Below the pieces are notes generated by a model that searched no databases, had not been told where the DNA came from, and worked only from the letters and a program-made list of their open reading frames with translations. A stretch of 32,000 nt of DNA from Candidatus Saccharimonadota bacterium. Lineage in GTDB: Bacteria > Patescibacteriota > Gracilibacteria > BD1-5 > UBA2023. Numbering within the stretch: position 1 is the stretch's first letter; the number at the start of each line of letters is the position of its first letter. The position numbers were made by a program, and so were the translations under genes. The stretch spans positions 450,001 to 482,000 of the forward strand of contig JAXLZO010000001.1 in the NCBI GenBank assembly GCA_046350815.1, read 5' to 3'. Of this stretch, positions 1 through 32,000 are shown one piece after another.

Positions 1-185
1 CACCAAGTACTGAATCATATGATATGAAACAAGCTGATATACTTTATCAGCAGATTGATGAATTGATAGCAAGATCTGATGATATTGTTTCGAGAAAATG
101 GTTTTTGGCAGTGAAAAAAGTTTTACCGACTGTAAATCAGGTACTCTATGATCAGCAAATTATTGCACAAATTTTTGAGGAATAA
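1..185 (+). CDS. 3' end of an unidentified protein-coding gene; the start lies upstream of the window
   Basis: Open frame from nt 3 ending at TAA 183-185 (...KKVLPTVNQVLYDQQIIAQIFEE*). No motif recognised. Confidence 0.5.
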   Translation, partial: PSTESYDMKQADILYQQIDELIARSDDIVSRKWFLAVKKVLPTVNQVLYDQQIIAQIFEE

Positions 186-261
186 TTTTTCTTAAAAATC
201 TCATCAGAAAGCGATTTTATTGAAAGAAAAAAAAGAAAGGGAAAAAAAGTCAAAAAATCTT

Positions 262-289
262 TTGACACCCCAATCATTTTCTATACAAT
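262..289 (+). promoter_or_regulatory. Sigma70-type promoter of the rRNA operon
   Basis: TTGACA (262-267), 16-nt spacer, TACAAT (284-289), followed by a C-rich discriminator. It lies about 180 nt upstream of the 16S 5' end. Confidence 0.6.
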
Positions 290-466
290 CCCCCTCGCTT
301 TCGCAAGAGGTAACCCCTCCATCGAAAAGGTCATTAACACTCAACACAAGAAGAAAACTCCATCTCATACAAGAGATGGTTTTAAGTAATATCGAGTGTT
401 CGCGTAAGCGAAACACTCACAATCAAGATAACAGCGAATCGCGCAAGCGATTCAAAGCTATCGTTC

Positions 467-1995
467 GTTTTAAAGAGTTTGATCATAGCTCAGGATGAAC
501 GCTAGCGGTGCGCCTAACACATGCAAGTCGAGCGATGATGGGGGTGACACAAAAGAGATAAGAGAAGTGCATGCGAAGCATGTTTTTCCTTTGTATCCTT
601 TGTGTCACTTCTTGATTAGCGGCAGACGGGTGAGTAACACGTTGGAATCTACCCCAGAGTGAGGGATAGCCCGGAGAAATCCGGATTAATACCGCATAGT
701 CCCGAGAGGGTAAAAGAGCAATCTGCTCTGGGAGGATCCTGCGTCCTATCAGCTAGTTGGCGGGGTAAAAGCCCACCAAGGCTATGACGGGTAGTTGGTC
801 TGAGAGGATGACCAACCACAATGGGACTGAGACACGGCCCATACTCCTACGGGAGGCAGCAGTGAGGAATCTTCCGCAATGGGCGCAAGCCTGACGGAGC
901 GACACCGCGTGGAGGACGAAGCCTTTGTTGGTGTAAACTCCTTTTTTCTCCGAAGATAATGACGGTAGGAGAAGAATAAGAAGCAGCAAACTACGTGCCA
1001 GCAGCTGCGGTAATACGTAGGCTTCAAGCGTTATCCGGAATTACTGGGTGTAAAGCGTCTGTAGGCGGCAGAGTAAGTTTGGCATGAAAGACCGGGGCTT
1101 AACCCCGTGTTTGTGTCGAAAACTGCTCAGCTAGAATCTGGGAGAGGGAAGCAGAATGATGTGAGTAGGGGTGCAATCCGTTGATACACATCAGAATACC
1201 AAAAGCGAAGGCAGCTTCCTGGAACAGTATTGACGCTCAGAGACGAAAGCGTGGGGAGCGAAAAGGATTAGATACCCTTGTAGTCCACGCCCTAAACGAT
1301 GATGACTAGGTGTCGGCGTAAGCCGGTGCTATAAGCTAACGCGTTAAGTCATCCACCTGAGGAGTACGGCCGCAAGGTTAAAACTCAAATGAATAGACGG
1401 GGACCCACACAAGCAGTGGATCATGTGGTTTAATTCGACAATAAACGAGGGACCTTACCCAGGCTTGACATCCCGAGAAGTCCGATGAAAGTTGGATGTG
1501 CCCGCAAGGGAACTCGGTGACAGGCGCTGCATGGTTGTCGTCAGCTCGTGCCTTGAGGTGTTCGGTTAAGTCCGTTAACGAGCGCAACCCATGTCGTTAG
1601 TTATTATGTCTAACGAGACTGCCTGAGTTAATCAGGAGGAAGGTGTGGATGACGTCAAATCAGCATGGCCCTTATGCCTGGGGCCACACACATGATACAA
1701 TGGTCGGTACAAAGAGTCGCAATACAGTAATGTGGAGCCAATCTATAAAGCCGATCTCAGTCCGGATTGAGGGCTGCAACTCGCCCTCATGAAGTTGGAA
1801 TTGCTAGTAATCGTGAATCAGACATGTCACGGTGAATCTGTTCCTGGGTCTTGTACTCACCGCCCGTCAAACCATGGGAGGTGCTTTTACTGGAAGCCCC
1901 CGAAGTAATATTGGGGTCCATGGTAGAAGTGCTGACTGGGGTTAAGTCGTAACAAGGTATCCGTACGAGAACGTGCGGATGGACTATCTCCTTTC
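467..1995 (+). rRNA. rrs: 16S ribosomal RNA
   Basis: AGAGTTTGATCATAGCTCAG at 474. GTGCCAGCAGCTGCGGTAATAC at 995-1016. 3' end ...AAGTCGTAACAAGGTATCCGTACGAGAACGTGCGGATGGACTATCTCCTTTC (to 1995). Ends are +/-10 nt. Confidence 0.97.
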
Positions 1996-2399
1996 AATAG
2001 TCTCATATGATGATGGATGTTTTCTTCTGGTGCCGAGTGTCAATGACTCTGTTCATTAACAAACACAAAGTATAAAACGATTAGTTAAAAAGCAATTTAA
2101 CTGAAAAATAAAAAAGAAAATGAGTAAAGAAAAACAAAGAAATAAAAAGAACCAAAAAAGAGTAGTCTTTTCAAATTCTCATATTTCCAGTCTTTCTATT
2201 CAATTTCACCAAAACTCTTAGAATAGATGAGTAGCAATACTCTTATTATTCCTAAGAATAGTTATCAGTTTGAATTCTTTCGCTAAACGAGTATCAACAA
2301 CAAACACAAAGAGAATAAAAAGCTAATCTAGAGATAGAAGGCACTCAAGATATACTTCCCGTCATACGGAAATATATCTCCTTCTATCTTATTCTGGTA

Positions 2400-29257: not shown

Positions 29258-29441
29258 TGCTATACTTATACTTCTCGTATTGCTTCAACCAAAACAATCC
29301 GGATTGAGCCTTGGTATTTCTAGCTCATGAGAATTTGCAAAGTTTGAACGACGTGGAGTAGAAAAAGTTCTTCATAATGCAACTATAATCATCACGGTAA
29401 TGTTTGTAGTGGAGACTCTTGCTGTATTCTTCTTTGTTTAG
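29214..29441 (+). CDS. secG: Preprotein translocase subunit SecG (75 aa)
   Basis: MSLSHILLTLLIITSAILILLVLLQPKQSGLSLGISSS-G-EFAKFERRGVEKVLHNATIIITVMFVVETLAVFFFV. This is the typical SecG layout: TM1, LLQxxK, a Gly-rich loop, then TM2. Confidence 0.75.
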
Positions 29442-29504
29442 TTTTACAGATACTTTTTCAGATAGATTCACGCCTCGTCTTTTGATGATATTTTCTTCAT
29501 TTTT

Positions 29505-31649
29505 ATGAACAATCGAAAAGCAATTCAAAAGTATATAACCCTTTTGATGGGTTTTTTCGCTCTCCTTGGTACTGGATTTTTGATCTTTTCTTATATCTAT
29601 CAAGGAAGTGTAGTCACGGCTGAGCCTGGAGGTCAGCTCATTATTGCTCAACTTGCTCCTCCTCCATCTCTTTCACCACTTGCCTATGGCACTGATGATC
29701 GCACGAACATCATCAACCATCTTATGTTTCGCTCGTTGATGAAGCCCGATCCAAAGAATCAAGAACTGAAACAAGATCTTGGATCTTGCGAATTTGGTCG
29801 AGTGAATGGAGAGGTGTCATGTACTATCCTTCCAGGATCTCTCTTTTCTGACGGCTCTTCTATTACACGAGAAGATGTGATAGCATCTTTTGTTCTCTAT
29901 CGCGAACAGGCACGATCGCAAGATATTCTTGGAATCTTGAGTCGTACTTCTGTTTCTGAGGGGCCATCTTGAGAGATTGTTTTTCGCACCGATTCTAGTC
30001 GTATGAAAGAAATGAGTGAGCTATTGGTACTTCCTATTCTCCCTCAATCAAAGCTCGATCTAATTAAATCTGCATCTATTTCTGAGAAGGTGCCAGTGAG
30101 CGGAATGCTCAAATATACTGGTCGTGAGACAAATGAAACCACGGGTGTAACAAAGTATTTCTTTGAAAAGTCAGCATCATCATCTTTTCTTGCTTCAAAA
30201 CTGGTGTTTGCCTTCTACGGTGACAATACAAACGTATTTCAAGAGAGTATTGGACAGGCATCATATATTCTCCCATCGACATGAACTGGGATAAACTCTA
30301 TGGGTGAGTTTCAAGAAATTATGTTGGAAATTCCAGAAGTTCTCGCCGTTTTCCCGAACATAAAAACTCTTCCATGAGAACTCAGAAAGCCGCTGTGACA
30401 GAGTATTATGTTCTTGAAAAAAACATTTCCTGAGGGGACTTTTTCTTCGAATCTTCCACCGGTTATAACGAGTACTATCTTACAAGATGATCCGATTTCT
30501 TATTCTGGAGTTGTTGCAAGTATTCAGGAGTGACTCAAGGCTATGAAGAAATATCCGAAAAATGATATACTTGTAACTCTTGAGCAAAATAAGAGCAATC
30601 TCCAAACGCAATCCGGCACATCCCTTCCAGATCCTGGATATAGCTCTATTATTACAAGTCCGAACAATCAAAAACTTTTTGTAGCAACAGGATCATTTGT
30701 GTTTCGTGGTCAAGCGCCTACTGGATCGGATTCTATGACGATCAATGGATTTCGATTGACTGAATTTCATGGTCGAGATTTTGCTTATCGTGCAAGCAAG
30801 GAGATTGGTACATTAAAGAATGGTTCAAATACCTATGAGATAGTTTTCTGGAAGAAAAATACAATTCTCTCTCGAGAAAATATTGTCGTAGAATTAATGA
30901 TTGATCCAGCTAAGGCTCAGATTCGATCGAGTGAAGTATATGAGCTCTATCATCCTGAAATAGCTTTGGAACGACGCACAGAAGCTATTAAGAAAATACA
31001 AATCCTCATTGATACAATTAAAACATATCCAGATACAGCATATCTCAATGAACTCTGAGAAAAAGCAACAATTACGGTTGCATCTCTCGCTCAAGAGCCG
31101 ATGAGTGATATGCTCTGGAAAAAACTAGAAACTATTTTTATAGACTCTTGATTTGAAGTAGTGCAGAAGAAGCTGAGTGTCGATGAGCTCAGGGATATGG
31201 TAAAAAATGACAAAAGAAGTTATGATCTTCTCCTCACGGGTATCTACCTTGGAAAAGAAGGGAAGGATATTTTCTCATTTCTCCACTCTCATGGCATAGA
31301 GAGTGGGTATAATTTTTGATGAGTGAGTGATATTAAACTCGATGCTTCACTTTCGGAACTCCGAGATATTGCAAGTGATGGAGCACGATTTCATACTTTA
31401 ACTAATCGAATTGCTGATAGAATAGCAAATGAATGATATCTCTATCCACTCGATATGCGCACCCAAATTGCTTATGTTCGCAAAGATATTGTGAATCGAT
31501 CATGAATAACATTGCAACGCTTGTCGAGTTTGGAAGATGTCGGTTTACTCTTTCCAGAGAGTGGTCTGAACGCAAGCTATAGACTTGATATGAACACAAA
31601 ATCTCTCAAAGGATACTTCCAATTTATCGACACTCTTTTTCACAAATAA
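29505..31649 (+). CDS. Membrane-anchored ABC-type solute-binding protein, family 5 (peptide/nickel, OppA/DppA-like), 714 aa
   Basis: Frame checked line by line; it contains 13 UGA. N-terminal anchor ITLLMGFFALLGTGFLIF. Family-5-like N-lobe signature: QLIIAQLAPPPSLSPLAYGTDDRTNIINHLMFRSLMK...ILPGSLFSDGSSITREDVIASF. TAA 31647-31649. Confidence 0.6.
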
Positions 31650-31655
31650 ATTTTT

Positions 31656-32000
31656 ATGTCTGAGCATGTGGTTGACCATCATCATACAGAAACTCATCAA
31701 GCAAAAGATGAGACTTTCGTTGATCATAGTCAACTTCATGAAACACACGAAGAATGACATGTATCGTCACATGATGATACACATGCTCATGGAAAATGGA
31801 ATTTTCGCACAGAAGTGGCCTATCCAGCGTGGGAGTTTTCGGCGACAAGTATTGGAAATACCGCAAAAAAATTCAATTATTTTCCTTCGCTCATAGCAGC
31901 AGTCTATCTTGCAGCAGTTCTTTTTTATCAGCTGTTTTCGACGTATAGTGTTATTTTTGGAAAAGGAAATCAAATTATCGGCATCATTCTCCAATTCTTT
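31656..32000 (+). CDS. 5' part of a membrane protein with a His/Asp/Glu-rich N-terminus; continues past the window
   Basis: ATG 31656: MSEHVVDHHHTETHQAKDETFVDHSQLHETHEE-G-HVSSHDDTHAHGKWNF..., followed by the hydrophobic segment LIAAVYLAAVLFYQLF. Confidence 0.55.

Follow-up and report, generated by a model that had tools for sequence, protein, structure and literature searches.

The 32,000-nt stretch analysed here in full (hereafter the window; positions 450,001-482,000 of contig JAXLZO010000001.1, assembly GCA_046350815.1) almost certainly comes from a Gracilibacteria genome (BD1-5-type, within the Patescibacteria or candidate phyla radiation, CPR) that uses translation table 25, in which UGA encodes glycine and only UAA and UAG serve as stops. 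The phenomenon itself is already known, since 2013, and the database record of this contig is already translated accordingly; table 25 was reportedly described by Campbell et al. 2013 and Rinke et al. 2013. A complete rRNA operon indicates that we are dealing with a cellular genome. The GC content is 39.8% over the whole window and 38.9% in coding sequence (GC3 0.30).

The evidence for UGA as a sense codon starts with simple counts. With TAA and TAG as the only stops, 22 protein-coding genes comprising 7435 codons fill the ~25 kb of the window left by the rRNA and tRNA genes (Table 1); a first pass had yielded 19 genes, and some of the counts given below cover only these. The 22 genes carry 116 in-frame TGA codons, with no TAA or TAG at all, and terminate in TAA (16) or TAG (6), never in TGA. 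About 22% of the glycine codons in the window are UGA. Since 190 and 233 TAA and TAG codons occur in the two off-frames of the first-pass set of 19 genes, the asymmetry between TGA and TAA/TAG is specific to the coding frame. It is best seen in the open reading frame (ORF) 11470-13911, where 813 codons, among them 24 TGA, run without any TAA or TAG to a terminal TAG; given 3.0% TAA+TAG per codon in the off-frames, a stop-free run of this length has a probability of ~2e-11. An earlier note on this DNA had counted the same for this ORF and had also maintained that genes end only in TAA or TAG, and both statements stand (the latter in 22 of 22 genes). Its further claim that every long gene is cut by TGA holds for 21 of the 22 genes and fails for the 133-aa gene at 6077-6478. 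The eight TGA codons that it quoted by position (19357, 14237, 23642, 15310, 15304, 7404, 7926 and 21127) all lie in frame and in the sequence context described, while the TGA within TLK-TGA-KSA of the IS200 transposase is placed at 26057-26059, also in frame.

Under the standard code, these TGA codons would be real stops, and the window would have to be filled with pseudogenes, split genes or assembly errors. Such an explanation might draw on the fact that table 11 does leave ORFs of up to 412 aa (from the start codon) or 461 aa (stop to stop). On the other hand, table 11 breaks the 19 first-pass genes into 129 pieces, and greedy non-overlapping ORFs cover 0.59 of positions 6000-32000 under table 11 against 0.95 with TAA/TAG-only stops, the mean ORF growing from 121 aa to 275 aa. 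Thus, the gene re-calling proposed in the earlier note came out in favour of a sense UGA, and the standard-code ORF track fragments the genes artificially because UGA stands for glycine. Many Pfam domains also continue across the TGA codons: Thymidylate_kin, malic/Malic_M, all three RuvA domains, UPF0176_N/Rhodanese, the RNase J beta-CASP domain, Y1_Tnp, N_methyl, T4SS_pilin and SecG. Moreover, the interruptions would fall exactly at catalytic glycines of essential enzymes, and the pattern is common to relatives (see below). With 116 TGA facing no TAA or TAG in 7435 codons, we consider the standard code barely conceivable here.

Opening the frames does not tell which amino acid is inserted. 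One competitor of glycine is tryptophan, the meaning of UGA in table 4, which is known from the Mycoplasmatales as well as from several insect endosymbionts. Since the frames opened by the two tables are identical, ORF length cannot discriminate between them, and the Logan, ENA and JGI pipelines have indeed put W at the corresponding sites of close relatives. For six conserved proteins, each TGA was masked as X and the sequence aligned to homologues of solved structure from the PDB. Ten TGA codons coincided with glycines conserved across all of the PDB homologues shown. In thymidylate kinase (Tmk), these were codons 7 (in the P-loop, EG..GSGKT) and 40 (REPGG), with Gly in 4 of 4 homologues each, while codon 54 fell into a variable column. 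Malic enzyme contributed codons 194 and 196 of the GxGxxG motif (3 of 3 homologues), and RNase J codon 242 (lGGlGEiG; 3 of 3), its codon 46 being outside of the aligned region. In the tRNA hydroxylase TrhO, codons 47 and 212 faced Gly in both structures, 9j5o and 4f67, and codon 221 faced Gly in one of them and Asp in the other. Codon 77 of the transposase TnpA corresponded to Gly in 4 of 4 homologues. Finally, codons 84 and 118 of RuvA are the two helix-hairpin-helix glycines; they are conserved in the PDB homologues shown and occur as Gly in 26 and 25, respectively, of 28 distant homologues, against a background of 9.1% Gly and ~0% Trp. The peptides expected across UGA-coded glycines are, for instance, ILEGMVGTGK in Tmk and VISGPGAAGTAVAK in malic enzyme.

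Neither in the six proteins aligned with PDB homologues nor among the 28 RuvA homologues did any TGA face a conserved Trp. At the same time, TGG is retained (41 codons) and aligns with conserved tryptophans of TrhO (NW/LW) and TnpA (FW/LW). Overall, the alignments bear out what the earlier note had said of TGA on invariant glycines in Tmk, malic enzyme, RuvA, RNase J, TrhO (the codon at 7926) and TnpA, and of TGG as a continuing Trp codon. One more glycine is suggested by the prepilin-like protein, where codon 11 (21127-21129) is a TGA located directly before YTLIEL; glycine at position -1 of the prepilin cleavage site is well established for type IV pilins.

A rescoring of Pfam matches points in the same direction. 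When TGA was replaced by each residue in turn in seven TGA-bearing domains of five proteins, Gly was the top-scoring residue in 7 of 7 domains. The summed score was 534.2 bits for Gly, 489.0 for Ser, 483.2 for the X mask, 470.9 for Cys and 470.0 for Trp, that is, a lead of 64 bits over Trp, 63 over Cys and 45 over Ser, with Trp falling 13 bits below even the mask. Amino acid composition agrees with this: in the 22 genes, Gly content is 7.0% counting TGA and 5.5% without it, while Trp content is 0.55% from TGG alone and would reach 2.1% were TGA read as Trp. Together with ten alignments to invariant Gly, none to conserved Trp and the alternation of W and G within the same columns among homologues of ORF 11470-13911 (see below), this makes tryptophan a highly improbable meaning of UGA in this genome.

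Selenocysteine or cysteine might also come to mind, as many bacteria use UGA for selenocysteine, and tools of the ARAGORN type report a tca anticodon as SeC. Still, the 116 sites are scattered over 21 of the 22 genes, pilins and the transposase included, and those in conserved positions align with Gly instead of Cys or selenocysteine; taken with the 63-bit deficit of Cys, this renders such a reading practically negligible. Somewhat more room, although still very little, is left for a UGA with two meanings, glycine within genes and, in certain contexts, a stop or a readthrough signal. A possible hint is codon 818 of the 825-aa protein hyp825, a TGA located seven codons before the TAA stop. Yet a TGA stop is needed in none of the 22 genes, and the C-termini of Tmk, RuvA, malic enzyme and TnpA, as defined by TAA or TAG, match the ends of their homologues. 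Hence, we regard a dual UGA as very unlikely.

Several observations speak against glycine decoding by table 25 or leave it less firmly anchored, and we would like to comment on them here. One of them is RuvA codon 123 (14354-14356), which falls into a threonine column (27 of 28 distant homologues), while codons 97, 154 and 187 of the same protein lie in variable columns. Apart from this codon and those named above, the TGA codons of the six aligned proteins all fall into variable columns; in conserved proteins, roughly every second TGA is uninformative for this reason. ARAGORN found no UCA-anticodon tRNA in the window, and neither prfA nor prfB lies within its 32,000 nt; both the tRNA that would read UGA and a loss of prfB are thus taken over from the literature on the lineage. 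The translation of the NCBI record with Gly cannot serve as independent evidence, because the table was set from a taxonomic label that is sometimes wrong: according to the gTranslate preprint, dozens of 'Ca. Gracilibacteria' assemblies really use table 11. For this reason, the code is established here by the sequence-based tests and not by the NCBI record.

As for RuvA codon 123, it corresponds to the Thr of the second helix-hairpin-helix motif, GxGxKTA, and two close relatives apparently also have TGA there (W in the database translations). Judged from the alignment, Thr was replaced by Gly specifically in this lineage, at a position that is otherwise almost invariant; the site is neither conserved as Gly nor occupied by Trp.

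The decoding machinery can be outlined from what is known of the lineage. Almost certainly, UGA behaves as an ordinary glycine codon, with termination confined to UAA and UAG. It would be read by a dedicated tRNA-Gly(UCA) bearing the glycine identity elements G1:C72, C2:G71, G3:C70 and U73, with release factor 2 (RF2), which terminates at UGA, presumably lost and release factor 1 (RF1) kept for UAA and UAG. Such a tRNA, with precisely these elements, is known to underlie UGA=Gly in Gracilibacteria and Absconditabacteria (PMC8629427), and prfB was undetected in all BD1-5 genomes available in 2019 (PMC6851277). According to the mBio paper, proteomic validation of UGA=Gly was provided by Hanke et al. 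2014 (PMC4032931). In the window, ARAGORN reported only tRNA-Val(TAC), tRNA-Arg(TCT) and tRNA-Val(GAC), in agreement with the earlier note, which had stated that tRNA-Gly(UCA) does not lie here. A UCA-anticodon tRNA was likewise not found by ARAGORN in the loci of nine relatives (~137 kb), where the only tRNAs were tRNA-Ser(GCT) and tRNA-Met(CAT).

Compared with the known codes, the window resembles table 25, covered in the survey of Shulgina & Eddy 2021 (PMC8629427): UGA is a sense codon on Gly columns, UGG is kept for Trp, and no stop codons other than UAA and UAG are used. With 1.28 Mb on one contig, the genome is small; it carries a CPR/Gracilibacteria label and has a moderately low GC content (38.9% in coding sequence). 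In these features, we see no substantive difference. Within the GTDB taxonomy, the recoded clade corresponds to class JAEDAM01, with the orders BD1-5 and Absconditabacterales. The systems using table 4 (Mycoplasmatales, Hodgkinia, Zinderia, Nasuia) share the sense UGA, although its amino acid is Trp there and Gly here; according to the literature, they have lost RF2 and possess a UCA-anticodon tRNA. The sister lineage Absconditabacteria (SR1) shares UGA = Gly and extends the code, CGA or CGG being read as Trp in some Absconditabacteria and possibly in some Gracilibacteria (PMC8629427). In the window, by comparison, CGA is abundant (80 codons, ~108 per 10,000) and CGG occurs in 12 codons. We saw no sign of a second reassignment involving CGA, CGG or AGG in the window, where informative columns are few: one CGG corresponds to the conserved Arg74 of Tmk, and one AGG to the conserved Arg of the malic enzyme motif ATGRSD. 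From these columns, CGA and CGG appear to be still arginine codons.

Further evidence comes from relatives. Scanning species-representative genomes with the RNase J core gave nine loci in metagenome-assembled genomes (MAGs), with 64-69% identity, titled Candidatus Gracilibacteria, Patescibacteria group or Candidatus Peribacteria. RNase J contains in-frame TGA in five of the nine; where a column of its alignment has any TGA (ten columns), the other cells hold Gly in 82 of 105 cases and Trp in none. Among related genomes, TGA and GGN thus replace each other within shared columns. Among the syntenic orthologues compared (RNase J, the 315-aa protein, the T4SS pilins and the 714-aa protein), a TGA of a relative faces Gly of the window in 37 of 84 cases, Gly being the commonest counterpart, and Trp in 1 of 84. 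The drop in ORF coverage under table 11 seen in the window recurs in the low-GC relatives (L006-L009), with 0.60-0.77 against 0.91-0.94, and the high-GC ones (L001-L005, 53-57% GC) contain 0-2 in-frame TGA per 600-1700 aligned codons. Two of the low-GC loci, L006 (CAZZNY010000001.1) and L007 (CAZXUQ010000006.1), are titled 'uncultured Candidatus Peribacteria' and yet are clearly UGA-recoded, with a table-11 coverage of 0.67-0.69 against 0.91-0.94 and TGA on RNase J Gly columns. Such a title could mislead code assignment.

Nine genes of the window, translated with table 25, are identical to NCBI proteins of 'MAG: Candidatus Gracilibacteria bacterium', with Gly at UGA; they belong to a record of one contig of 1,283,673 bp, with accessions from MFO0763693 and locus tags beginning with U0518_. 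These identical proteins under that label, and the related MAGs with TGA at RNase J Gly columns, several of which are clearly recoded, agree with the Gracilibacteria-type lineage proposed in the earlier note.

A different picture emerges from other protein sets. Six homologues were found for ORF 11470-13911, all from recoded relatives, and in its 24 TGA columns, 34 of 144 cells are Gly and 64 are 'W', the two alternating within the same columns. The 'W' probably stems from TGA codons of the homologues themselves, read under table 4. Such an alternation fits TGA and GGN being synonymous, and it is the only respect in which the six homologues are informative. Close homologues of the products of 11470-13911 and 13988-14605 (P0012, P0055 and P0098-P0103, with 2.1-4.6% Trp), as deposited by Logan, ENA and JGI, have Trp exactly at the TGA positions of this genome; one of them, P0098, corresponds to the 813-aa protein itself and shows W at 24 of 24 sites. 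We infer from these sequences that the Logan, ENA and JGI copies were probably translated with table 4 where table 25 applies, which would amount to a systematic mistranslation. Table-4 translation depresses homology scores and inflates the apparent Trp content.

The features of the window are collected in Table 1. Each rRNA covers its Rfam model over the full length and lacks large insertions, and the 16S-23S spacer (1995-2398, ~400 nt) contains no tRNA gene. On the opposite strand, the 133-aa gene sits among the three tRNA genes downstream of the 5S gene. In related MAGs, orthologues of the T4SS_pilin-like genes adjoin RNase J.

Table 1. Genes and other features of the 32,000-nt window (coding sequences called with TAA and TAG as the only stops)
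Feature	Coordinates	Strand	In-frame TGA	Remarks
16S-23S-5S rRNA operon, complete	467-5659	+		Rfam matches 467-1994, 2399-5353, 5544-5659
tRNA-Val(TAC), tRNA-Arg(TCT), tRNA-Val(GAC)	5863-6886	+		ARAGORN and Rfam; 3' of the 5S gene
Hypothetical protein, 133 aa	6077-6478	-	0	Sole gene without TGA; identical to NCBI MFO0763693.1
TrhO (UPF0176/rhodanese tRNA U34 hydroxylase), 369 aa	6957-8066	-	3	Codons 47, 212, 221 = 7926, 7431, 7404; TGA codons lie inside Pfam domains
Hypothetical secreted protein, 676 aa	8237-10267	-	7	TAA/TAG-free ORF, TAA end; no Pfam match
Hypothetical Cys-repeat membrane protein, 344 aa	10427-11461	+	2	
Hypothetical secreted protein, 813 aa	11470-13911	+	24	TAG end
RuvA, 205 aa	13988-14605	+	6	Codons 84, 97, 118, 123, 154, 187
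NAD(P) malic enzyme, 382 aa	14743-15891	-	2	Codons 194, 196 = 15310, 15304, in the GxGxxG dinucleotide fold; NCBI name NADP-dependent malic enzyme
Small pilin-like or secreted protein, 186 aa	16149-16709	-	6	No Pfam match
Hypothetical membrane or secreted protein (hyp825), 825 aa	16716-19193	-	11	
Thymidylate kinase (Tmk), 208 aa	19339-19965	+	3	Codon 7 = 19357 (P-loop), codon 40 = 19456 (REPGG), codon 54
fn3/Big_5 surface protein, C-terminal LPQTG anchor, 307 aa	20016-20939	-	3	Below-cutoff Pfam matches fn3, Big_5, Gram_pos_anchor
Type IV prepilin-like protein, 168 aa	21097-21603	+	9	Pfam N_methyl at residues 12-30; NCBI name type II secretion system protein
RNase J, long N-terminal extension, 777 aa	22034-24367	-	3	Including codon 242 = 23642
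Hypothetical secreted protein, HExxH-like motif, 315 aa	24553-25500	-	5	Orthologues adjoin RNase J in relatives
IS200/IS605 Y1 transposase TnpA, 139 aa	25829-26248	+	4	Including codon 77 = 26057; Pfam Y1_Tnp
Hypothetical protein, 202 aa	26338-26946	-	2	
Four tandem T4SS_pilin-like genes	26976-27452, 27464-27898, 27901-28290, 28294-28794	-	4, 4, 2, 4	Pfam PF18895 matches all four
SecG, 75 aa	29214-29441	+	1	Pfam SecG, 46.6 bits
Hypothetical secreted protein, 714 aa	29505-31649	+	11	Orthologues in relatives' loci

It is also important to note that once TGA is open, very long shadow ORFs appear antisense to genes, at 21986-24259, 14845-16017 and 19926-21026 (all on the plus strand) and elsewhere; the one opposite RNase J spans 757 codons in the same codon register. 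They arise because leucine codons are mostly CTC (246) and CTT (249), with only 47 TTA and 29 CTA, which makes TAA and TAG rare on the antisense strand. For a genome rich in AT, such a preference for CTC and CTT is unusual. Shadow ORFs are thus a hazard for gene calling with table 25: two of the T4SS_pilin-like genes were at first overlooked owing to overlapping shadow ORFs, and SecG is likewise easily lost.

The transposase gene tnpA belongs to a compact IS200/IS605-type element (25685-26334). Similar subterminal CCCCC...GGGGG hairpins lie at 25685-25709 and 26310-26334, and a perfect 20-nt inverted repeat (25743-25762 and 25798-25817) is located just 5' of tnpA. Three NCBI accessions from the same MAG have an identical TnpA, and a fourth is near-identical. 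Since tnpA uses four TGA-Gly codons, the element is adapted to the code of its host. Another gene to mention is that of the surface protein at 20016-20939, whose product has LPQTG followed by a hydrophobic tail at its C-terminus and, by these signals, resembles a sortase substrate, in this case of a CPR bacterium.

Finally, UGA-Gly codons may be unevenly spread among genes. In five housekeeping genes (those for TrhO, RuvA, malic enzyme, Tmk and RNase J), TGA makes up 11.6% of the Gly codons, as compared to 26.2% in the others, which encode surface, pilin and hypothetical proteins and the transposase (Fisher p = 3e-4; a small sample limited to the window). The extremes are RNase J and malic enzyme, with 6% each, and the pilin-like genes and TnpA, with 40-44%. 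Should the pattern extend over the whole genome, it is tempting to suppose, though we consider it a doubtful proposition, that UGA decoding via tRNA-Gly(UCA) is costly and selected against in highly constrained or highly expressed genes. The cost might lie in slow decoding or in misreading between UGA and UGG via U34 wobble.

Overall, the window adds one more member to a known reassignment that had earlier been supported by proteomics. In practical terms, the gene track, domain scan and homology search on this DNA all need table 25, as catalytic glycines otherwise look like stops. As to the biology of these bacteria, the uneven use of UGA, if true genome-wide, would represent a measurable footprint of a codon reassignment that is incompletely 'settled'.

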